This document shows, piece after piece, positions 1 through 15,411 of a DNA stretch of 17,400 bases. Below the pieces are notes generated by a model. The model searched no databases, had not been told where the DNA came from, and saw only the letters and a program-made list of their open reading frames with translations. Both the position numbers and the translations under genes were made by a program. How positions within the stretch are numbered: the first letter of the stretch is position 1; every line of letters starts with the position of its first letter. Origin of the DNA: a virus (taxonomy: Duplodnaviria > Heunggongvirae > Uroviricota > Caudoviricetes); IMG/VR virus record IMGVR_UViG_2802429221_000010. The stretch is one strand, 5' to 3'.

Positions 1-1215
1 ATGCTGCTTTCAGACCTTGCTATCAGACGCGCGAAGCCGAAAGAAAAGGCTTATACGCTCAATGACGGTAACGGGCTTTCGTTACTCATTGAGCCGAACG
101 GCTCGAAAGGGTGGCGACTACGTTACAGGTTTGCAGGAAAGCCCAAAATGTTGTCATTGGGCGTGTACCCTGATGTGTCTCTGTCTGATGCCAGGGCGGC
201 AAGGGATGAGGCTAAAAGGCTTCTTGCTGGTGGTATAAATCCAAGTGAGGCCAGAAAAGCCCAAAAGCGAGAACAGGCGAGCAAATTTGGCAATACTTTT
301 GAGGGTATCGCTCGCGAATGGTACGAAAAGCGGATCGACAGGTGGTCATCGTCATACGCCGAGGAAATGATCGAGACGTTTGAAAAAGACGTTTTTCCGT
401 ACATTGGCGGTAGGCCGATCGCAGAAATTAAGCCGATGGAATTGCTGGCGGTTCTTTCCCGTCTTAATGACCGTGGTGCGACTGAAAAATTGCGTAAGGT
501 TCGCCAGCGATGTGGCGAGGTGTTCCGGTACGCAATCATCACCGGACGCGCCGAATATAATCCAGCCCCTGACCTGGTGAGCGCATTTGCTCCACATAAA
601 AAAGAGCATTACGCCTATCTGAAGGCCGACGAACTGCCGGAATTTTTCCGCGTTTTTAATACGTACACCGGAAGCCAGATCGTCAAACTGGCAATGCGGC
701 TATTAATTCTGACAGGTGTCAGACCCGGGGAATTACGGCAGGCAGAATGGCGGGAGATCGATTTTGATAATCGTTTGTGGGAAGTGCCTAAAGAACGAAT
801 GAAGATGCGCCGTCCGCATTGTGTGCCATTACCAGAACAGGCGATAAAAATACTGGAGCAGTTAAAAAACATGACAGGCCAGTATCAGTTTATTTTCCCC
901 GGTCGTATTCACCACAGTAAGCCAATGAGTGAAATGGCGATGAATGTACTCATTCGTCGTATTGGCTACGCCGGGCGCGTCACTGGTCATGGATTCCGGC
1001 ACACCATGAGCACCATTTTGCATGAACAGGGCTATAACACTGCGTGGATAGAAACACAGCTTGCGCATGTTGATAAAAACTCAATTCGTGGCACGTACAA
1101 CCATGCGCAATATCTGGATGGTCGCCGGGAAATGCTCCAGTGGTACGCCGACTATATGGATTCGCTTGAGCATGGCGGAAATGTTGTTTACATAAAATCT
1201 GAAAAATTAAATTGA
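1..1215 (+). CDS. int: Tyrosine site-specific integrase, P4-type (phage integrase family)
   Basis: 404-aa ORF. N-terminal stretch LSDLAIRRAKPKEKAYTLNDGNGLSLLIEPNGSKGWRLRYRF matches the P4-type integrase arm-binding domain. C-terminal catalytic box GHGFRHT (H-x-x-R) plus downstream Tyr (TYNHAQY). ORF starts at window position 1, so the true start could lie upstream. Confidence 0.93.
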   Translation: MLLSDLAIRRAKPKEKAYTLNDGNGLSLLIEPNGSKGWRLRYRFAGKPKMLSLGVYPDVSLSDARAARDEAKRLLAGGINPSEARKAQKREQASKFGNTFEGIAREWYEKRIDRWSSSYAEEMIETFEKDVFPYIGGRPIAEIKPMELLAVLSRLNDRGATEKLRKVRQRCGEVFRYAIITGRAEYNPAPDLVSAFAPHKKEHYAYLKADELPEFFRVFNTYTGSQIVKLAMRLLILTGVRPGELRQAEWREIDFDNRLWEVPKERMKMRRPHCVPLPEQAIKILEQLKNMTGQYQFIFPGRIHHSKPMSEMAMNVLIRRIGYAGRVTGHGFRHTMSTILHEQGYNTAWIETQLAHVDKNSIRGTYNHAQYLDGRREMLQWYADYMDSLEHGGNVVYIKSEKLN

Positions 1216-2531: not shown

Positions 2532-3332
2532 ATGAAACTGCGAAAAACGCCCGTACAGGGGCAGGGCTTCGTTCGGCCTGAAAACCAGAATCTGCAAAAT
2601 TTCGGCGAAATTATCCCGATTATTTCCGGCGTTATTGGCGGGAGTGAAACCACTATTGTTAGCGCCAGAGCGTTACATAAGGCGTTAGGTGTAGGGCGCG
2701 TTTTCCGTTCGTGGATCAAGGGGCGCATTGAAGAATACGGGTTCACGGAAGGCGTGGATTATGAGGTTGTTGAATATTTGAGCCGACCCGATCCGGTGAG
2801 CGCAAAATCTCGCCAGCAAACCGCTCTTGAGTACATCATCACAGTGAACATGGCAAAAGAACTGGCGATGGTCGAACGCACCGAACAGGGCCGCGCCGTT
2901 CGTCAGTACTTCATCAAATGCGAGGAGGAGCTACACAAGGTAGCGCCAGTGCGTTCCGCAGCGTTACGCCGGGAACTGAAAGCCCGTATCACAGTTGCCA
3001 GCTACTTTAAGCCAATGTGTGCCGCGTTGGAGGCGTACCGGGCTGAACTGGGTAAAAACACGTTCCAGCACCACTACACCACGGAAGCCAATATGCTGGC
3101 GCGTATCGTGCTGGGTGGCATGACTGCAAAACAGTGGGCGCAGGCGAACGGCATCACAGGCGAACCACGCGACCACATGAGCACGTTGCAGCTTGAGCAC
3201 CTTTCTTACCTTGAGCAGAGCAATATCACGCTGATTGAGTTAGGCCTGGACTACCACCAGCGGAAAGCTGAATTAATTCGTCTTTCGCAGCGTTGGTTAG
3301 CCCGTCGCATGGAGGAAAACAGCCATGTGTAA
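2532..3332 (+). CDS. Phage antirepressor-like protein (AntA/AntB-type N-terminal domain)
   Basis: 266-aa ORF with AGGAG Shine-Dalgarno. Segment SARALHKALGVGRVFRSWIKGRIEEYGFTEGVDYEV resembles the AntA-family core. Domain assignment is from memory, not a search. Confidence 0.65.
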   Translation: MKLRKTPVQGQGFVRPENQNLQNFGEIIPIISGVIGGSETTIVSARALHKALGVGRVFRSWIKGRIEEYGFTEGVDYEVVEYLSRPDPVSAKSRQQTALEYIITVNMAKELAMVERTEQGRAVRQYFIKCEEELHKVAPVRSAALRRELKARITVASYFKPMCAALEAYRAELGKNTFQHHYTTEANMLARIVLGGMTAKQWAQANGITGEPRDHMSTLQLEHLSYLEQSNITLIELGLDYHQRKAELIRLSQRWLARRMEENSHV

Positions 3333-4863
3333 CGCTCTGACCGTTACAAAAAGAGAAAGCGCCCCGTTGCCGGAGCGCCTTTGTGAACGAATAGCCTACT
3401 GCGCCATATTGCTTACTGTCTACGAGGCAGATTATAGCGTTGTGGTCGCACAGAGTGAAGGCGCTGATCACCGTTACTACAGCACGCCAGAAATGCAGAA
3501 TATTTTGCTGCAAAATGTCGTTGGTCACGCTGTCCGGAAAGCAAAAAATTTTGCTGGTAGCGCGACTGATGCGATTTTGTCAGGTCGCCAGGTGATGATC
3601 AATCTGATGTCTAATTTCGTTCTGGATAAAACAAAGGCGACCGCAGAGGGCCACCAGTGGGAAAGCTACACACTTGAACACATCGCCAACAATGCCAGAT
3701 TTGCGGCTGGTGGGCAATGTGATCAGTGTGCTGGCTTGCTGGTGGGCTATTCCTGCTCTTTAACATTGCCATGCCGCGATGTTTTCCAGGTATGCGACCC
3801 CATTTTTGTGCGCCTGTACTCTTTAAGGAATTTCTCAAGGATAAACGCACAGGGCGCGAATCTGTCTGACTCATATTCGTACGCTATCTTTCTGCGCTGT
3901 CTTTTCCGTGCCGGTGATGGTGTATTGGTTGATTCTTTGTTGGTCATTCTGTGTACCTGTAAAGCAATGCGCCGGAGTTCCTCACACCACGGCGATGATA
4001 GTTATTATTCTGATTCTTTGGCCTTGCGGCGCTGGAGTTCTTCACGTGCGACGGTGACGAGTTGCCCGATCTCCTCGACAGCTTTGACTCCGATTTTTTC
4101 CACCTGCGCCAGTGCATTGAGCGAAGAAACCAGGGGATTTTCTCCGCTTCCTTCTGCCTGGCGGCGGGCGATCTCACCACGCATGGCGGTTACTATGAAT
4201 CCGGCGTTGCTTTCGCCGTCCAGTTTTACGGATTCCATGCCTTCAAAAGCATCATGTGGGATACGAATTGAAATCTGTTTTGATTTGTCGTTGATAGTGT
4301 TTTTTGCCATGTGCATTCTCCTAAACAAAAGATGTGATTCAGTATACACAAAAAAGAATCACAAAAAATACTTGACCTGTGATTCAGTTAAATTTAATTT
4401 AAATCACACCTCAGTAAGAGGATGTAAACGACAACGCCCCGAACTGTTTGCGGCAGTAGCGGGGCGTCTAACCAAACCGTTAAATGAGGTAACGATTATG
4501 GCTGGGGCACAGCATACCCAAACTCACCCTAAATTTATATACACCTTCCTGGCGGTGCACCGTGATTGCATGGCTGACGGTAAAAACACTGTTCATGTAG
4601 CCGCCGATACGCTGGTTGATGCCTGCGAGATGCTCAATGACATGGGCTATATCTCGGCAACATGGAAAGGGCGCGAAGAAAACACGTTGTTTATTCAGAA
4701 ATGCGAAAACAATTTTATCTGGCGTTTTATCGCCCTGAGTACGGCACAACCGCGCGTGATTCACATCGAGGCCACCAGCGAACAGGAAGCACGCCAGCAA
4801 TCTCCTGATGGCTGCGTGATGGTATTCGCTGCCCATATTCGCCAGGAGGTGGAGCATGTGTAA
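3325..4863 (+). CDS. ORF of uncertain extent: translationally coupled start, plausible coding N-terminus, remainder probably not a real 512-aa protein
   Basis: ATG at 3325 overlaps the upstream stop (ccATGTGTAAcg). First roughly 120-160 codons have protein-like composition. From about 3800 the translation turns Ser/Cys/Arg-rich and low-complexity, runs antisense through the RHH-like gene (4005-4310) and its operator region, and ends in frame with the better-supported start at 4498. Confidence 0.25.
   Translation: MCNALTVTKRESAPLPERLCERIAYCAILLTVYEADYSVVVAQSEGADHRYYSTPEMQNILLQNVVGHAVRKAKNFAGSATDAILSGRQVMINLMSNFVLDKTKATAEGHQWESYTLEHIANNARFAAGGQCDQCAGLLVGYSCSLTLPCRDVFQVCDPIFVRLYSLRNFSRINAQGANLSDSYSYAIFLRCLFRAGDGVLVDSLLVILCTCKAMRRSSSHHGDDSYYSDSLALRRWSSSRATVTSCPISSTALTPIFSTCASALSEETRGFSPLPSAWRRAISPRMAVTMNPALLSPSSFTDSMPSKASCGIRIEICFDLSLIVFFAMCILLNKRCDSVYTKKNHKKYLTCDSVKFNLNHTSVRGCKRQRPELFAAVAGRLTKPLNEVTIMAGAQHTQTHPKFIYTFLAVHRDCMADGKNTVHVAADTLVDACEMLNDMGYISATWKGREENTLFIQKCENNFIWRFIALSTAQPRVIHIEATSEQEARQQSPDGCVMVFAAHIRQEVEHV
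4005..4310 (-). CDS. Ribbon-helix-helix-like small DNA-binding protein; candidate element repressor
   Basis: Translation MAKNTINDKSKQISIRIPHDAFEGMESVKLDGESNAGFIVTAMRGEI has a beta-strand then helix pattern typical of RHH (CopG/Arc) folds. AGGAGA sits 6 nt before the ATG at 4310 on the minus strand. Divergent from the + strand gene run, with palindromic repeats between. Confidence 0.6.
   Translation of the reverse strand: MAKNTINDKSKQISIRIPHDAFEGMESVKLDGESNAGFIVTAMRGEIARRQAEGSGENPLVSSLNALAQVEKIGVKAVEEIGQLVTVAREELQRRKAKESE
4330..4412. promoter_or_regulatory. Divergent promoter/operator region with TGTGATTC inverted repeats
   Basis: TGTGATTC (4333-4340) and GAATCACA (4355-4362) form one palindrome; TGTGATTCAG (4377-4386) and AATCACA (4402-4408) form a second. 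A TTGACC -35-like hexamer (4371-4376) lies between them, with a possible -10 TAATTT about 17 bp downstream. Confidence 0.45.
4498..4863 (+). CDS. Hypothetical protein, 121 aa
   Basis: ATG at 4498 preceded by GAGGT 7 nt upstream, located downstream of the promoter/operator region. Globular-looking composition. Stop overlaps the next gene's start (gcATGTGTAAtg). Confidence 0.5.
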   Translation: MAGAQHTQTHPKFIYTFLAVHRDCMADGKNTVHVAADTLVDACEMLNDMGYISATWKGREENTLFIQKCENNFIWRFIALSTAQPRVIHIEATSEQEARQQSPDGCVMVFAAHIRQEVEHV

Positions 4864-5080
4864 TGCAACATGGCCTGATGCAGCGGTAGACGCTATCAAA
4901 ACGCTGATGGATTCACTTATTGAGATTTCTGCTATCGCTGGTGTGGCGCATAAACACGCAGCCAGAGAATCAGAATGCATCTCCCATTATTTAGCATTTG
5001 TGCAGCTGAAAGCCGATCAGGCACTGGATAAGGCCGGAAAAATTATCATGGCTGATGTGCAGGAGGTGCACCATGCATAA
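4856..5080 (+). CDS. Hypothetical small protein, 74 aa
   Basis: AGGAGG 6 nt upstream of the ATG. Start overlaps the upstream stop and its stop overlaps the next start (ccATGCATAA). Begins MCNA, like the ORF at 3325. Confidence 0.5.
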   Translation: MCNATWPDAAVDAIKTLMDSLIEISAIAGVAHKHAARESECISHYLAFVQLKADQALDKAGKIIMADVQEVHHA

Positions 5081-5438
5081 CCTGTCAATTTCTGACCTTA
5101 ACAGCATTCAGTTTGACGAGAAATTTACCGGGCAGCTACTGGTCAATGTGGAGAATGGACGCGTGGTAAGTAATTATCACCTGCCGGATGGTGCAATTGC
5201 CGGAAGCGTTGAAGCATTGCTGGAGCTGGCAGAACGTGCGCGACTGATTAAGCCGTTAACGTGCCATCACGATGATAATCTGCATTTTACCGGACGCATG
5301 GTGAGTCACTACGAAAACGGCGTTGAAGTATCCTGCGAACGTCTGCGTGATGATTGCTGTTTCGGCACATTGCCGGAATTTATCGAATTGCTGACCAGTT
5401 GCGGTTATCAGGTCATTCAGGGGGGGAAACATGCGTGA
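5073..5438 (+). CDS. Hypothetical protein, 121 aa; paralogue of the 5657-5857 product
   Basis: AGGAGG 6 nt upstream of the ATG at 5073. N-terminus MHNLSISDLNSIQFDEKFTGQLLVNVENGRV aligns with MHNHEAHVPVVLNVPDDFTGRVLVYLDKGKV of the 5657 ORF. Confidence 0.6.
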   Translation: MHNLSISDLNSIQFDEKFTGQLLVNVENGRVVSNYHLPDGAIAGSVEALLELAERARLIKPLTCHHDDNLHFTGRMVSHYENGVEVSCERLRDDCCFGTLPEFIELLTSCGYQVIQGGKHA

Positions 5439-5664
5439 TGATCGTTTTAATTCCCTGAAACAGGAGTTTGATGGCGCACCGGAAGATACATCGGGCGCAT
5501 TGTTGAACGTTGCTGACATGATGAAAGCTGCATATTTTCTTATCAATACCAATGGCTACAAGTCAGAGGGTGAAATGATTCTTAGTATTGCGTCGGACTA
5601 TGCGGAATATGTGGCAGAGGCGCGTTACAGAAGAAAATTCACGGAGGATATAAGCCATGCATAA
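5431..5664 (+). CDS. Hypothetical small protein, 77 aa
   Basis: GGGGGG before the ATG. Start overlaps the upstream stop (ATGCGTGA) and stop overlaps the next start (ccATGCATAA). Confidence 0.5.
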   Translation: MRDDRFNSLKQEFDGAPEDTSGALLNVADMMKAAYFLINTNGYKSEGEMILSIASDYAEYVAEARYRRKFTEDISHA

Positions 5665-5857
5665 TCATGAAGCGCATGTACCCGTAGTGCTTAATGTGCC
5701 AGATGATTTCACCGGACGCGTACTGGTTTACCTGGATAAAGGGAAAGTGAAATCACAACGCCGACTGAAAAGTAATGAAATTTTGGGTTCTCCTGAGTTT
5801 TTTTCTGAACTCTGTATTCGTGCAGAAATAAAACCGGAACTGCTGACAGGAAAATAA
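5657..5857 (+). CDS. Hypothetical small protein, 66 aa; paralogue of the 5073-5438 product
   Basis: GGAGGA 8 nt upstream. Shares the MHN start and DFTG(Q/R)(L/V)LV motif with the 5073 ORF. Confidence 0.55.
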   Translation: MHNHEAHVPVVLNVPDDFTGRVLVYLDKGKVKSQRRLKSNEILGSPEFFSELCIRAEIKPELLTGK

Positions 5858-5861
5858 AACC

Positions 5862-6152
5862 ATGAAAAAGAAAAATTCTGGCTTTACTGCCAGCGGTCTC
5901 TCTCGGCCTGAAATCAGACACGGAGATATTTACCGCGACACCATACGTGGGGGACGAGCGGTTATTTGTCATGTTACGCCAGAAAATATCACCTACCGCC
6001 GTGACGCTTATGAATATGACTGCATAATGCCGTGCCGTCAGTTTGAGCGTGATTTTATTCTGGTGGAGAACAAACAACAGGAAGCGACGAGACGTGCAGC
6101 CATGAATATTAAAAAAATCCGGGCAATGTTGGTTGCGGGAGGTAAGAAGTGA
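5862..6152 (+). CDS. Hypothetical protein, 96 aa
   Basis: Stop-bounded ORF immediately upstream of the primase; its TGA overlaps the primase GTG start (GTGA at 6149-6152). Confidence 0.5.
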   Translation: MKKKNSGFTASGLSRPEIRHGDIYRDTIRGGRAVICHVTPENITYRRDAYEYDCIMPCRQFERDFILVENKQQEATRRAAMNIKKIRAMLVAGGKK

Positions 6153-7954
6153 AAAACGCACCGAGTCTAAAATATCAGCCGAAGGATAAATTCACTGAGG
6201 TAATCATTTTTGCCGGGACGGATGCTTACGCCCATGCTCAACACTGGATTGAAAGTGAAGGACGAAAACACGGCGATAACGTGCCTCCTGTTTACCTGGG
6301 GCCAAAGCAACTGGCAGACCTGGCGAATATCCGCATTATTGACGAGAAACGCCGTTTTGCGCGTGTCTATATCGCGGGGGAGATAGAGCCAATCCAGATC
6401 AATACTATCGCTGAAAAGCTGGCGCTGGCTGGCGTACAGGACGCGAAATTATACAAAGGTATCACCGACCGGGAGCCGGAAAACTGGCGCGACTACCTGC
6501 AACGGATCCGCGAACAGGCAGAGAGTGGGGAAGTTTCAGCGATGAAATTAGCCACAAAAAATATTGACCTACCCAGGCCAGCACTAAATCAGATGGGAGC
6601 CAGCCAGAGAGGGGAAGTGTTACTTGAATATTATGGAAGAGCACTGGCTATAAATGATGATTCTGATGTAGTTCACCATTACAACGGAATTGTCTGGGTG
6701 CCTGTATCTGATAAGGAACTCCAGCGGTCTATGGCGAAGATTTTTATTGATGCTGGAATCAGTTATTCGCAAAACGCCATTAAATTTGCCGTAGACACAA
6801 TGAAATTGAGCCTGCCTGTTATGGGCGGGGCAGACAGGAATCTTATTGGATTCAGTAACGGGGTATTTGATACCCGGACGGGAAATTTTCGGGAGCATAA
6901 CAAAAATGACTGGTTGTTAAATGCCAGTGAATTACCGTTCAGCCCACCAGCAGAGGGGGAAACGCTGGCAACACATGCGCCGAATTTCTGGAAGTGGCTG
7001 CGTCGTTCGGTGGCAGATAATGATCGTAAAGCTGATCGCGTACTGGCGGCATTATTCATGGTACTGGCGAACCGGTACGACTGGCAGTTATTCCTTGAGG
7101 TAACAGGCCCAGGCGGAAGCGGTAAAAGTGTGATGGCTGAGATTTGTACCATGCTGGCGGGTAAGGCCAACACAGTATCGGCAAGCATGAAGGCTCTGGA
7201 AGACGCAAGGGAACGCGCGTTAGTAGTTGGCTTTTCGCTGATTATCATGCCGGATATGACTCGCTACGCTGGCGATGGTGCAGGAATTAAGGCAATTACT
7301 GGCGGCGACAAGGTGGCAATTGATCCGAAACATAAAGCCCCCTACTCCACACGTATTCCGGCAGTAGTGCTTGCGGTAAACAATAACGCCATGTCATTCA
7401 GTGACCGAAGCGGGGGGATCTCGCGTCGTAGGGTGATATTTAATTTCTCTGAGGTCGTACCGGAGAACGAACGCGATCCCATGCTGGCGGAAAAGATAGA
7501 AGGCGAACTGGCGGTAGTGATTCGCCATTTGCTAACACGATTTACCGACCAGGACGAAGCTAAAAGACTACTTTATGAGCAGCAAAAATCAGAAGAAGCG
7601 CTGTTGATAAAGCGCGAAGGTGATTCACTGGTGGACTTTTGCGGCTATCTGATGTCGTTGGTTAAATGTGAAGGAATGATGGTGGGCAATGCGGAAATAG
7701 TGCCATTTAGCCCGAGGCGATACCTGTATCATGCTTATTTAGCCTATATGTCAGCGCATGGCCTGGGAAAACCAGTATCACTGACACGCTTTGGTACTGA
7801 TATGCCAGGAGCTATGGCGGAATACGGAAAGGAGTATAAGCGGGCTAAATGCACTAAAGGCCCGGATAAAGGGCGAGTGATAACAAATGTTCTGTTAGAT
7901 GATGATGCTGATGGCTGGTTGCCAGCAGCTACAGGGATTAACGACAGAACATAA
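6149..7954 (+). CDS. Primase-helicase-type replication protein (P4 alpha / D5-like NTPase)
   Basis: 601-aa ORF with Walker A GPGGSGKS at 7106-7129 and a downstream hydrophobic strand ending in acidic residues (LIIMPDM). The N-terminal half is long enough for a primase-like domain. Immediately followed by an iteron array. Confidence 0.88.
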   Translation: MKNAPSLKYQPKDKFTEVIIFAGTDAYAHAQHWIESEGRKHGDNVPPVYLGPKQLADLANIRIIDEKRRFARVYIAGEIEPIQINTIAEKLALAGVQDAKLYKGITDREPENWRDYLQRIREQAESGEVSAMKLATKNIDLPRPALNQMGASQRGEVLLEYYGRALAINDDSDVVHHYNGIVWVPVSDKELQRSMAKIFIDAGISYSQNAIKFAVDTMKLSLPVMGGADRNLIGFSNGVFDTRTGNFREHNKNDWLLNASELPFSPPAEGETLATHAPNFWKWLRRSVADNDRKADRVLAALFMVLANRYDWQLFLEVTGPGGSGKSVMAEICTMLAGKANTVSASMKALEDARERALVVGFSLIIMPDMTRYAGDGAGIKAITGGDKVAIDPKHKAPYSTRIPAVVLAVNNNAMSFSDRSGGISRRRVIFNFSEVVPENERDPMLAEKIEGELAVVIRHLLTRFTDQDEAKRLLYEQQKSEEALLIKREGDSLVDFCGYLMSLVKCEGMMVGNAEIVPFSPRRYLYHAYLAYMSAHGLGKPVSLTRFGTDMPGAMAEYGKEYKRAKCTKGPDKGRVITNVLLDDDADGWLPAATGINDRT

Positions 7955-8319: not shown

Positions 8320-8337
8320 GTAACGATGGGGCAAAGC

Positions 8338-8868
8338 ATGACTAAGCTGACCATTAACAGAAAACCAAAAGGTATTTACGGCACGCCGCAGAAAACGACG
8401 CAGGCGGCGCAGCAGCAGGATAAAACCACATCGGCGCATAAAGTGATGCCCGGTAACCAGAAAGCGCAGCAGAAGCCCACAGGGGCAACACCGTGGCGGC
8501 ATATGACCAAACGGCAGCGAAAAAACCGCAGACGCGTTAACCGCCTCACTGAGTTGTGGCCTGAATTATTCAGCCGGGAAGCACCGAAGCCGCTTAAGGT
8601 GGGGATATTCGACGACCTGATGCAGGATCTCGCCGTCAGGGGGCTGGCATTCGGGCCAGGGGCATTGCGTGCGACGCTGGCATCTTATGCGCAGTGTCCG
8701 CGCTATTACCGCGCCTTAATGGCTGGTGGGGTACGCTACGACCTGAAATGCCAGCCGTGCGGCGAGGTGACACCACAGGAACAACAGGACGCAGAAACGC
8801 GGCTGGTTGCGCTGAATGAGAAACGCAAACGTCAGCGTCGGGCAGCAAAGGAGAAAACAGGCGCATGA
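8338..8868 (+). CDS. ProQ/FinO-domain RNA-binding protein
   Basis: Segment PLKVGIFDDLMQDLAVRGL...LRATLASYAQCPRYYRALMAGGVRYDLKCQPCGEVTPQEQ aligns with E. coli ProQ N-terminal domain (PLKIGIFQDLVDRVAGEM...[39 protein letters not shown]). N-terminal half is basic and low-complexity. Start could be 8326 or 8338. Confidence 0.8.
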   Translation: MTKLTINRKPKGIYGTPQKTTQAAQQQDKTTSAHKVMPGNQKAQQKPTGATPWRHMTKRQRKNRRRVNRLTELWPELFSREAPKPLKVGIFDDLMQDLAVRGLAFGPGALRATLASYAQCPRYYRALMAGGVRYDLKCQPCGEVTPQEQQDAETRLVALNEKRKRQRRAAKEKTGA

Positions 8869-9152
8869 TTCACGACAGCAAAGCGGAAGCTCTGGAAGCG
8901 CGTGGTCTGTACCGGAGAGCGGCGGCGCGGTGGGCTGAGGTCATCATGCTGGCGAATGATGACAAGGCACGGGAACAGGCGGCAAAACGTCGCGCGGAAT
9001 GTATCCACAAGGCAGCACGCCCACCAGCAAGGCAGGATAATTTCGGGGAGATGCGCAAAACCATCAGCCGGGCACATGCCGGGATGGGATTACATCAGCC
9101 CAATGGTGAGGCATTCAGGAAATACCAAAAAAAGAACAATTGTAGTCAGTAA
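8865..9152 (+). CDS. PerC-family transcriptional regulator-like protein
   Basis: 95-aa ORF with ATGA overlap onto the upstream stop. N-terminal SKAEALEARGLYRRAAARWAEVI resembles the PerC/Pch signature as I recall it; not checked by search. Confidence 0.6.
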   Translation: MIHDSKAEALEARGLYRRAAARWAEVIMLANDDKAREQAAKRRAECIHKAARPPARQDNFGEMRKTISRAHAGMGLHQPNGEAFRKYQKKNNCSQ

Positions 9153-13424: not shown

Positions 13425-14480
13425 GTGTCTACACAGAAAATTGAAGAAAAATTTACATCTGCACAAGATGCATTAGTAATTCAGCAATCCGATTTATCAT
13501 TAAAGTCACTTTCTGATATGGTTGAATTAGATGCAGTAGATATAAGTCCAAAATATCAGAGAAGGGAGCGTTGGACTGCGGAGAAAGAGTCAAGTTTGAT
13601 TGAATCATTCTTGCTAAACATCCCGGTCCCGCCAATTTATCTCGCAGAGGATAGATATGGAATCTACTCAGTAATAGATGGAAAGCAAAGAATAACGGCT
13701 ATAAATAAATTTTTAACAAATAAAATGAAACTCGTGGAATTAGAAAAATTTCCAGAGTTAGAAGGGTTCTATTTTAAAGACTTACCCCAACCTCTTTCTA
13801 ATGCATTAAGCATCCGACCATATTTAAGAGTGGTCACATTATTGCGCCAATCTGACCCAGACTTAAAGCATGAAGTCTTTCTGAGATTAAATAAAGCAGG
13901 AGTATCTTTAAATTCTCAAGAGATAAGAAATGTTGCTTTTAGAGGGGATTTAAATGATGCTCTTATTGAACTGTCGGATACTCCATTTTTAAAAGAAATG
14001 CTTAAATCAAATAAAAATACTAAAATTTACCAAGAAATGGGAGATGTTCAGTTTGTGTTGAGGTTTTTTACTGTGTTTGATTTGTGGGAAAATTTTCCAG
14101 GTAATATGGATAAAGCTATGGATCTATTTATGGCGAAAAAATCTCGCAGCTCAATTCAAGATGTTAACGAAATGAAGCGGTTATTTTTGCGCTCAATTCA
14201 TTTTTGCGAGACGGTGTGGGGTAATGATGCATACAAAAGAATTGATAACAGTCAACGCGTAATTCAAGGTATGTATGATGTCCAGATGGTTTGCCCTGCC
14301 TTTTTACAACAAAATGAATATGATCATGCCATGGAAAATGCTGCTGATGTAAGACGACTCTTAGTTGATGAACTTTCAAATAATGCGGATTTTCTTGAAT
14401 CAGTGACTCAGTTCACGTCTAACCCAAGAAATATTGCATATAGAATATCACACTTCTGTGACCTTCTGAGAAGAATTTAA
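13425..14480 (+). CDS. DUF262-domain protein (ParB/Srx-like NTP-binding domain as in GmrSD-type enzymes N-termini)
   Basis: GTG start with AAGGG 7 nt upstream. N-terminal motif ISPKYQRRERW (13548-13580) fits the DUF262 P-x-(F/Y)-Q-R...W box; DGKQRITA (13677-13700) fits the DGQQR box. AT-rich. Stop TAA 14478-14480 lies 1 nt before the next ATG. Confidence 0.85.
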   Translation: MSTQKIEEKFTSAQDALVIQQSDLSLKSLSDMVELDAVDISPKYQRRERWTAEKESSLIESFLLNIPVPPIYLAEDRYGIYSVIDGKQRITAINKFLTNKMKLVELEKFPELEGFYFKDLPQPLSNALSIRPYLRVVTLLRQSDPDLKHEVFLRLNKAGVSLNSQEIRNVAFRGDLNDALIELSDTPFLKEMLKSNKNTKIYQEMGDVQFVLRFFTVFDLWENFPGNMDKAMDLFMAKKSRSSIQDVNEMKRLFLRSIHFCETVWGNDAYKRIDNSQRVIQGMYDVQMVCPAFLQQNEYDHAMENAADVRRLLVDELSNNADFLESVTQFTSNPRNIAYRISHFCDLLRRI

Positions 14481-14481
14481 T

Positions 14482-15411
14482 ATGCCTATTCCAGCGAAGG
14501 ACAATTTGCTAAAAAGAATCCTGTCTGTAGATAATGCAACTCAACTACCAGCACTTATCGATAAAGATGTTATGCAGGAACAACACAATATCACAGCTAA
14601 TCTTCTGAGAAAAGGCTTAGGTATAGTAGCATTTAATATTCTGGAAGATTTTATAAAATCCAGAACTATAGAAATGTTTGATTTTATATCTAATGCACGT
14701 GTGAGATTCGAGCAGTTACCCGATTCTTTTAGAATTGCAGCAACAAATGGTGCATTAAGAGGATTAGTATATCAGGCTGGATTAGAAAAGAAAAATAATG
14801 GAGATTGGTTGGCACTAATACATTCTGAGGCCAAAAGTATTTTTTCAACGTCGCAATTTCCTTATACATTATCTCGAGTATCACTTCTTTCAGATGGTTC
14901 TAATGTTGGACATGATGATATACCAGAAGTAATGAAGTGTCTTGATATAACTGGTGGGTGGAAGACATTACAAAAAATATCGAACGATATTGGTGGTGGT
15001 ACATTAGATCTGAATGCTGCTTATAAAAATATGTTTTTCGATAGAAATAGATGTGCTCATGAAGCAGGTTTTAATTATCCATATACCTCTCTCGATAATT
15101 CTTTAAATGACATTGTTACTATTGCTTCTGCATTTGACATAGCGTTAACTACTCGTTGCAGGTATATAGAAAAACAACCTAATTTACCGCTTTCAGCTCA
15201 TAAAGAAAAAGATCCGTTTTCATATCGGTTTTTAATCGCTGATGGAGATGTTTTTCGAGAGAAAAAATCATTAGAACCTGGTGCGAAAACAATAAAAAAA
15301 TGGAGTAATATCTCTGATGCACAATCTAATTTAATTCCTAAGCTAAGACTCCGCGATGAGTTTTTGATTTATATAGGAAAACAGAGAAGGCTTAGTGATT
15401 GGTATTTGTGA
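14482..15411 (+). CDS. Hypothetical protein, 309 aa, with a HEPN-like R-x4-H motif; partner of the DUF262 gene
   Basis: Tightly coupled to the DUF262 gene (TAAtATG). Contains FDRNRCAHEAG (R-x4-H at 15043-15060), compatible with a HEPN RNase active site. No DUF1524/HNH-like (D/E)H-x-x-P motif seen. AT-rich. Confidence 0.75.
   Translation: MPIPAKDNLLKRILSVDNATQLPALIDKDVMQEQHNITANLLRKGLGIVAFNILEDFIKSRTIEMFDFISNARVRFEQLPDSFRIAATNGALRGLVYQAGLEKKNNGDWLALIHSEAKSIFSTSQFPYTLSRVSLLSDGSNVGHDDIPEVMKCLDITGGWKTLQKISNDIGGGTLDLNAAYKNMFFDRNRCAHEAGFNYPYTSLDNSLNDIVTIASAFDIALTTRCRYIEKQPNLPLSAHKEKDPFSYRFLIADGDVFREKKSLEPGAKTIKKWSNISDAQSNLIPKLRLRDEFLIYIGKQRRLSDWYL

Follow-up and report, generated by a model that had tools for sequence, protein, structure and literature searches.

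Among described satellites, the closest to the element treated here are the phage-inducible chromosomal islands (PICIs) EcCICFT073 and EcCIMP1 (Fillol-Salom et al. 2018; Pick et al. 2025). For these two relatives, helper-driven induction, excision and packaging are experimental findings (PMC6092414 and PMC11773190). According to Fillol-Salom et al. 2018 (PMC6092414), Gram-negative PICIs look unidirectionally transcribed and their global repressor is called unclear; a reporter fused to EcCICFT073 ORF3 needs AlpA, and AlpA activates its own promoter. We analysed a 17,400-nucleotide (nt) stretch of DNA, IMG/VR record IMGVR_UViG_2802429221_000010 (the whole stretch is called the window below). Like both islands, it carries int, alpA, a D5-type primase gene and PerC.

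By domain search, the tyrosine integrase (Phage_integrase plus Arm-DNA-bind_3) occupies window positions 1-1215. An AlpA-family regulator follows downstream of int at 2253-2453 (Phage_AlpA, E 9.7e-20), and Pfam matches to D5_N, DUF5906 and Pox_D5 at 6149-7954 mark the primase/replication module. ProQ/FinO and PerC genes are also encoded. The element thus has the integrase with a specific integration site, the AlpA regulator and the primase expected of a Gram-negative PICI. A 98.5%-identical element in Escherichia coli 537-20 adjoins tRNA-Thr and proA. Near-identical elements occupy this thrW tRNA-Thr site, the same site as that of the experimentally mobilised PICI EcCIMP1 (PMC11773190). Judged from its genes and from the site of these relatives, the window is a Gram-negative PICI of the EcCICFT073/EcCIMP1 type. 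An initial annotation had spoken of a satellite element, and int, alpA, antA, the D5-type primase and the thrW site bear this out.

EcCICFT073 further shares with the window the order YlcI (minus strand), Icd-like, small genes, DUF4222 and primase, together with a long stop-free frame. It differs in its set of small genes, which in the window are a 74-amino-acid (aa) gene, MHN121, a 77-aa gene and MHN66. On balance, we read this region as the control switch of a PICI of the EcCICFT073/EcCIMP1 type together with its early (replication) operon, probably with chained translation, an array of exchangeable cassettes and a stop-free bridge across an antisense repressor candidate.

Chained cistrons and their stop/start junctions

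The plus-strand features of the proposed operon are as follows.

2532-3332, plus strand: antA/AntB-type antirepressor gene (Pfam AntA, E 2.5e-23; annotated by PGAP in the related loci L001 and L002)
3325-4863, plus strand: stop-free frame of 512 codons, the last 121 of which are the Icd-like gene
4498-4863, plus strand: Icd-like gene, 121 aa from an internal ATG with a Shine-Dalgarno sequence (SD) (NF033153, E 3.8e-22; phrog_6196, phrog_1743)
4856-5080, plus strand: 74-aa gene, its product helical in look from sequence (phrog_5146, E 1.7e-48)
5073-5438, plus strand: MHN121, two tandem MHN domains (aa 1-61 and 62-121)
5420-5426, plus strand: poly-G tract (G7), the SD of the 77-aa gene
5431-5664, plus strand: 77-aa gene, conserved at both ends and mosaic and hypervariable in between (phrog_24341, E 4.1e-46)
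5657-5857, plus strand: MHN66, single-domain paralogue of MHN121, a beta-hairpin plus helix
5862-6152, plus strand: DUF4222 gene, conserved end of the variable array (Pfam, E 7.7e-18)
6149-7954, plus strand: D5_N/DUF5906 primase-helicase gene (Pfam), with a 4-nt GTGA overlap with the preceding gene

Two junction sequences had been reported as recurring. The first, CATGTGTAA, lies at 3324-3332 and 4855-4863; it is present at both places, and only the ranges originally given (3323-3332 and 4853-4863) were too wide, by 1-2 nt. The second, CCATGCATAA, is found at 5071-5080 and 5655-5664, exactly as claimed. A further junction at 5430, ATGCGTGA, had been overlooked. Recurrence as such carries little weight: for 9- or 10-mers in 17.4 kb, the estimate N^2/2/4^k gives hundreds of repeated pairs by chance. 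The consensus CATGYRTRA occurred 5 times in the window against 1.65 +/- 1.38 in shuffled sequences, and 8 of 200 shuffles reached 5. Yet all five sites are on the plus strand, each at one of five successive stop/start overlaps (3324, 4855, 5072, 5430 and 5656) running from antA to the second MHN gene, and the window holds none elsewhere. The non-random part is the placement of the sites, not the recurrence of the motif.

3324-3332, plus strand: junction 1, C-ATG-TG-TAA, 8-nt overlap of antA and the long open reading frame (ORF)
4855-4863, plus strand: junction 2, C-ATG-TG-TAA, SD CAGGAGG in codons Q-E-V
5072-5080, plus strand: junction 3, C-ATG-CA-TAA, SD CAGGAGG in codons Q-E-V
5430-5438, plus strand: junction 4, C-ATG-CG-TGA
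5656-5664, plus strand: junction 5, C-ATG-CA-TAA, SD GGAGGA in codons T-E-D

All five share one design: the upstream gene carries an SD within its last 5-7 codons, and C-ATG-NN-TRA follows, an 8-nt overlap. Hence, the upstream protein ends in His-Ala or His-Val. In three unrelated proteins (Icd-like, 74-aa and MHN121), the C terminus reads Q-[E/G]-[V/G]-x-H-[V/A], from CAGGRGG-N6-ATG in the DNA. In AntA and the 77-aa protein it reads E-[E/D]-x-S-H-[V/A], and GGAGGA stands nine bases ahead of the ATG; the last codons of antA, E-E-N-S-H-V, hold the SD of the next ORF. Across related loci, the Icd-like gene and its successor overlap by 8 nt in 9 of 10, Pectobacterium and Klebsiella with their diverged flanks included, and C stands at -1 of the ATG in most of the distinct junction contexts compared. 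Of 55 homologues of the 77-aa protein, 43 are of typical length and retain the conserved C-terminal tail, and all 43 carry His at -2; the tails of the remaining 12 are diverged, truncated or extended. The last residue of these homologues varies (A, G, E or V). A fixed His followed by a variable last residue is the pattern expected from a nucleotide-level constraint on C-ATG.

Termination-reinitiation at overlapping stop and start codons is familiar from ATGA and TGATG joints, for example in the trp operon. The junctions described here resemble these joints in that the stop overlaps the next start and the SD lies within the upstream gene. They differ in being uniformly 8 nt with C at -1, five in a row, where 1- or 4-nt overlaps are usual. 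A lambdoid prophage of CFT073 shows about ten 4-nt overlaps versus one 8-nt overlap, and the rest of the window element is likewise dominated by the 4-nt type. From antA (2532) to the primase gene (end 7954), the plus-strand cistrons are chained, with a largest untranslated gap of 4 nt.

Perhaps none of this is special? Phage-like compaction, with SD, ATG and stop constraints and shared ancestry, might yield the junctions, and the long frame might be neutral in a permissive antisense phase. Start/stop overlaps are common in phages, and the motif count is only marginally above the shuffles. Against this stand the five successive 8-nt overlaps where the 4-nt type dominates elsewhere, and features of the long frame described next. 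Overall, we consider this explanation unlikely.

A stop-free frame over antisense genes

The following features lie beneath or beside the long frame.

3747-3947, minus strand: 66-aa gene, co-oriented with the repressor candidate (phrog_21027, E 1.7e-30; a PGAP coding sequence (CDS) in L001)
4005-4310, minus strand: YlcI/YnfO-family gene, candidate repressor, divergent from the Icd-like operon (NF041551, E 5e-18; phrog_6522, phrog_949)
3356-3381, minus strand: hairpin of an intrinsic terminator for minus-strand transcripts; it falls in codons 11-19 of the long ORF (minus-strand form -22.6 kcal/mol, z -3.4)
3636-3655, minus strand: second terminator-like hairpin, after the 66-aa gene
4333-4363: operator-like inverted repeat, TGTGATTC-N15-GAATCACA
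4373-4413: operator-like inverted repeat, TGACCTGTGATT-N17-AATCACACCTCA
4434-4467, plus strand: GC-rich hairpin in the Icd-like leader, ACGCCCCG...CGGGGCGT, 8-bp stem (z -3.4)

The first junction, at which an ORF beginning MCNA starts, had been taken for part of a small-gene module. It opens the 512-codon frame instead, and the two MCN ORFs show no likeness past MCNA. Between 3325 and 4863 the long frame contains 0 stops, the other two plus frames contain 26 and 33, and the minus frames contain 17-19. The frame runs antisense over the 66-aa gene, the YlcI/YnfO gene and the promoter/operator region, and reaches the Icd-like gene at its end. The Icd-like domain (48 aa, NF033153) scores 78.1 bits against a cut-off of 25 and covers residues 73-116 of the 121-aa product.

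An equivalent open frame is present in 14 of 18 related loci, with 0 stops in each versus 13-43 in the other plus frames. Lengths are mostly 312-653 codons, the shortest being 248 (L016); the frame has 433 codons in EcCICFT073, 344 in E. ruysiae and 348 in Klebsiella pneumoniae ATCC 13883. Could the compaction explanation account for this conservation? A further 145-345 codons, ahead of the annotated start of the Icd-like gene and not overlapping the minus genes, are stop-free in six diverged loci, whereas the other plus frames carry 7-28 stops over the same stretches. The probability of no stop there is 6e-4 to 2e-9 per locus (4e-6 in the window). Every minus gene checked lies in the one phase in which the third codon positions of both strands coincide (wobble-aligned). 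Pairwise indel counts modulo 3 were mostly uninformative, with alignment noise in replaced segments, and clean large indels alone were usable; between relatives they measure 45, 126 and 402 nt (the last two separate the window from L009), all divisible by three. In separate lineages, the frame also begins coupled to the gene before it: its overlap is 8 nt with antA in the window and 8 nt with BRO-N in L004, and it forms an ATGA in Klebsiella. In a sequence type 131 (ST131) island (L007), the ATG lies 9 nt past alpA behind a G-run. In the degenerate locus of Pectobacterium betavasculorum (L010, 5636-6189), the frame is broken, but the break coincides precisely with an ATGA at which it overlaps the Icd-like start; continuity is maintained there by coupling, not by one frame. 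These observations, L010 apart, speak against a neutral frame.

We also considered whether the long ORF might itself be the gene, encoding an Icd-family protein of about 430-520 aa (the published "ORF3"), with the YlcI/YnfO and 66-aa ORFs as its shadows. Gene callers do sometimes call it, as a 528-aa ORF in L014 (1402-2988) or as a 305-aa "Icd-like protein" in L003 (3619-4536, PGAP), and unidirectional transcription of Gram-negative PICIs, as described in PMC6092414, would suit it. The minus-strand ORFs, though, match the curated families NF041551 and phrog_21027, the 42-aa N-terminal domain of the YlcI/YnfO protein (NF041551) scoring 64.9 bits against a cut-off of 30. A strong SD, read from the sequence, precedes the ATG at 4310, and the residue pattern of the product makes it a candidate ribbon-helix-helix (RHH) protein. 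The terminators and operator-like repeats suit minus-strand expression. Amino-acid conservation of the two strands is uninformative over the YlcI region because the third positions coincide, but the order of codon-position divergence can discriminate: it was pos2<pos1<pos3 on the minus frame in 11 of 12 comparisons, the other being a pos1/pos2 tie. The plus product is Ser/Cys/Leu-rich and gave no family hit upstream of the Icd-like domain. Given this divergence order and the lack of a hit, we conclude that the plus strand appears to conserve openness rather than a protein. We regard a long Icd-family gene as very improbable.

Annotation of the region is inconsistent more widely. PGAP makes no call for the frame in L001 and gives "incomplete" partial CDSs in L015 (3122-3569) and L017 (3113-3569); the Logan-contig caller that reports the 528-aa ORF in L014 omits the YlcI-like gene.

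The T-run of the 3356-3381 terminator is strong on the minus strand and weak on the plus strand. A ribosome on the plus strand would melt the weaker plus form. Read on the plus strand, the 3636-3655 hairpin translates to a "KTKAT" peptide that is conserved in all lineages. The second operator-like repeat overlaps a -35-like TTGACC at 4372-4377. The leader hairpin at 4434-4467 is not an intrinsic terminator, because it has no U-tail; its ACGCCC...GGGCGT-CTAACC motif is visible in diverged relatives. Rfam, searched over the whole window at the gathering score and over 3300-4900 at E<=10, returned no C4/IsrK-type or other credible RNA.

How might the region work? The overlaps would couple termination to reinitiation, leaving no gap between RNA polymerase and the ribosomes behind it. 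While the element is quiet, the internal Icd-like promoter would be under repression by the RHH protein. Upon helper induction, AlpA-driven transcription from upstream would be translated continuously across the repressor cassette, sparing it Rho-dependent polarity, and this read-through would collide with repressor expression. The operon would then be expressed: Icd-like, cassettes, DUF4222 and primase. The small proteins would act together early, MHN121 and the 77-aa protein probably as a complex aimed at a helper or host target.

A bolder form of the proposal is possible but doubtful. It holds that the frame is a selected "ribosome bridge" past the antisense RHH gene, that this gene is the missing master repressor of Gram-negative PICIs, and that read-through which escapes Rho interferes with the repressor and turns on the Icd-like/replication operon. 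The frame would then have hidden the gene from callers and from maps, that of EcCICFT073 included. EcCICFT073 ORF3 is most likely this long frame. The searched text of PMC6092414 and PMC11773190 makes no mention of the antisense RHH gene, the 8-nt junction rule or the MHN family, and a frame masking an antisense repressor candidate is apparently undescribed in the literature searched.

Several points weigh against the favoured reading. That the long frame is translated, that ribosomes reinitiate at the overlaps and that Rho plays any role are predictions from sequence. Since 78 nt separate alpA from antA, the chain in the window is incomplete from alpA. Four related loci lack a continuous frame: L010 (above), L005, whose island has another repressor and carries a TIR gene insertion, and L012 and L013, run-assembled contigs with a single frameshift, possibly an assembly error. 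The related loci are not independent trials. Inside the minus genes, an antisense frame in the wobble-aligned phase is intrinsically permissive, with a probability of no stop of 0.07-0.8 per gene by synonymous-codon resampling. Such a frame is often open by itself over Tyr/His/Gln-poor genes, and K-12 ylcI, which lies outside any PICI, is also stop-free in it; both facts favour the compaction explanation. The AlphaFold2 model of MHN121 is of low confidence (predicted local distance difference test (pLDDT) 64, predicted template modelling score (pTM) 0.49). For the small proteins, neither structure nor family searches gave a hit pointing to an activity.

Known immunity and replication switches offer partial parallels. 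The Icd protein of P1 is a 73-aa FtsZ inhibitor (PMC11897509). The immI operon of P1 (c4 RNA, icd, ant) resembles the window in placing an Icd-type first cistron ahead of antirepressor or replication genes, and the immunity/left operon of P4 resembles it as a satellite with small ORFs upstream of primase. According to Biere et al. 1992 and Briani et al. 2000, translation of leader ORFs reportedly protects P1 immI and P4 from Rho termination. Unlike these systems, the window gave no C4/CI-type RNA match in Rfam; the proposed control would be a protein repressor encoded antisense within an ORF, and the Icd-like domain ends a frame of 300-650 codons. Stl-Str switches of Staphylococcus aureus pathogenicity islands (SaPIs) and other Gram-positive PICIs share with the window a small repressor gene diverging from a rightward replication operon, with operators between (candidates here). 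They differ in that the window has a stop-free ORF over the repressor gene, linking plus-strand genes on its left to the replication operon, and also has AlpA activation.

Should the RHH protein prove to be the repressor, with the open frame as its bypass, a testable switch mechanism would follow for a large class of satellites, and the "partial Icd-like" pseudogenes and 528-aa ORF calls would be accounted for. The antisense RHH gene candidate and the operator-like repeats are conserved here and in 13 relatives, EcCICFT073 among them.

The MHN domain and the cassette array

The two proteins that begin MHN had been called clear paralogues, and the call holds. MHN121 and MHN66 share 23 of 61 residues (38%) in BLASTP (E 3e-8), and both match phrog_340 (MHN121 at E 5.6e-30 in two stretches, MHN66 at E 1.3e-19). 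BLASTP also gave a second match inside MHN121 (E 5e-5); MHN121 is therefore a tandem two-domain form. From these alignments, the MHN genes are taken to have arisen by duplication, with the domain present three times. A profile search of 1.8 billion proteins recovered the domain of about 60 aa in 86 representative clusters. Family members are mostly single-domain proteins of 60-90 aa, and some have two domains. The AlphaFold2 model of MHN66 (pLDDT 90.9) shows a beta-hairpin, then a helix, then a short helix. The uncertain MHN121 model has these elements twice, each with an extra short strand, and at its confidence the packing of the repeats as a pseudo-dimer is undecidable. The domain found no match among solved or viral predicted structures. 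MHN proteins had no match in a Pfam set that did not include PF27490; some relatives (P0022, P0024) carry a precomputed PF27490 tag.

MHN121 and the YlcI-like protein each gave zero tblastn matches in 50,697 phage records, which argues that they are satellite or prophage-island proteins rather than phage proteins. A scan of genome contigs with MHN121 found no match, and an Icd-like query of the same kind of contigs retrieved 3 loci only.

Are the two MHN genes halves of a duplicated pair, as the initial annotation proposed? Under this explanation, a translationally coupled unit of helical partner plus MHN gene was duplicated in tandem to give two modules. The paralogy of the MHN genes and their common 10-nt junction CCATGCATAA fit it, as does the 74-77-aa protein, helical-looking by sequence, that precedes each MHN gene. 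Alignment of the paired products supports only half of it: the MHN proteins align, but the 74- and 77-aa proteins gave no BLASTP hit to each other and an hhalign probability of 0.1%. Because these partners are unrelated, a duplicated gene pair is contradicted; the MHN domain alone is duplicated. The MCN ORFs are unrelated as well. EcCICFT073 has the 74- and 77-aa families side by side with no MHN gene, and other relatives have a single MHN gene only. Natural fusions, moreover, join MHN121 to the downstream 77-aa gene and not to its upstream neighbour, which argues for joint action of MHN121 and the 77-aa protein and contradicts the pairing first proposed. Coupled-pair duplication is thus very improbable as a whole. 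We lean instead towards a chained cassette operon with uniform 8-nt junctions, a novel small domain present three times and what may be a selected stop-free frame over an antisense repressor candidate.

The other suggestion of that annotation, module shuffling, fared well. The blocks that Megablast finds in common with other E. coli elements have an end at window positions 4851, 5431 and 5660, which are junctions. Five loci that share the 74-aa gene, MHN121 and the 77-aa gene are about 100% identical in blocks spanning junctions (4946-5110 and 5423-5467), against 0.6-0.75 identity in gene interiors. Chimeras, fusions and repeat-deletion forms point the same way, and copy number varies across related elements, MHN being absent, single or repeat-deleted in relatives. 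Between the Icd-like gene and DUF4222, the array holds one to five genes of several families, differing by island. Since homology blocks break at the junctions and natural fusions and chimeras exist, these genes appear to act as small exchangeable cassettes. Parts of the 3300-5900 interval are carried by 1659 of 5426 complete E. coli genomes, and at least 80% of it by only 45; the region is hence highly mosaic.

The MHN family itself looks prone to recombination, expanding, contracting, fusing and recombining at its repeats. Repeat-deletion forms of MHN121 have 67, 83 or 91 aa. A natural chimera joins the N terminus of MHN121 to the C terminus of MHN66, fusions of MHN121 to the 77-aa protein are abundant (169-196 aa), and MHN occurs fused to Icd-like, AntA or DUF4222 fragments. 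P0070, P0226, P0065, P0053 and P0026 are chimeras of this kind, an Icd-like plus 74-aa form among them; some may be assembly artefacts. Fused and split DNAs differ by one G in the poly-G tract: among relatives, G5 goes with fused MHN121/77-aa, G6 and G7 with split genes; E. ruysiae has G9 and EcCICFT073 G8. The tract at 5420-5426 may be a slippage-prone switch between split and fused products.

Conserved boundary ("linker") sequences are said to have been reported in mosaic lambdoid phage genomes by Clark et al. 2001, in line with modular theory. The window resembles these in its short conserved gene borders, variable interiors and breakpoints at boundaries, and differs in its fixed SD/8-nt overlap design and in lying in a satellite early operon. 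The junction blocks might accordingly be mainly recombination linkers for cassette exchange and not sites of translational coupling. Homology breakpoints at junctions, the near-identical junction-spanning blocks and the number of chimeras all agree with this. Such a role is compatible with coupling, though, not exclusive of it, and the 8-nt design with C at -1 survives the diverged flanks of Klebsiella and Pectobacterium, which argues for a functional constraint on the joint. We regard linkers as the main role as improbable, and retain coupling within an exchangeable array as the preferred reading.

None of the small proteins had been credited with a recognisable domain. This stands for Pfam, but not for the Icd-like protein, which has its NCBIfam domain; the small proteins all belong to PHROG families of unknown function. 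Across Pfam, NCBIfam and PADLOC, only Icd-like, YlcI/YnfO and DUF4222 were matched, and the six proteins between 4498 and 6152 gave no PADLOC anti-phage defence match. Toxin-antitoxin pairs were rejected as an explanation: there was no profile hit, and the MHN121 fusions go to the downstream, not the upstream, gene. From sequence features, the hypervariability of the 77-aa protein and the position and fusions of the small proteins fit helper- or host-directed early factors, and the MHN domain with its hypervariable 77-aa neighbour is a candidate for such a role. The junction rule and the cassette behaviour together offer a handle on how satellites shuffle small early genes.

Accessory genes and related islands

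Downstream of the primase gene, window 8326-9152 holds the ProQ/FinO-family and PerC-family genes, with a 4-nt overlap between them. A PerC homologue of EcCIMP1 is reported as a LEE1 repressor (PMC11773190). An accessory region at 13425-15411 encodes a candidate two-gene defence pair: the first protein (351 aa) has a GmrSD_N (DUF262-type) domain and a PADLOC NsnA match (E 7e-65), and the second (309 aa) is a RiboL-PSP HEPN protein.

In three related loci (L005, L006 and L016), islands with the YlcI/Icd-like/DUF4222/primase module are embedded in the capsid or terminase genes of prophages and thus belong with the helper-embedded PICIs of PMC10111431.

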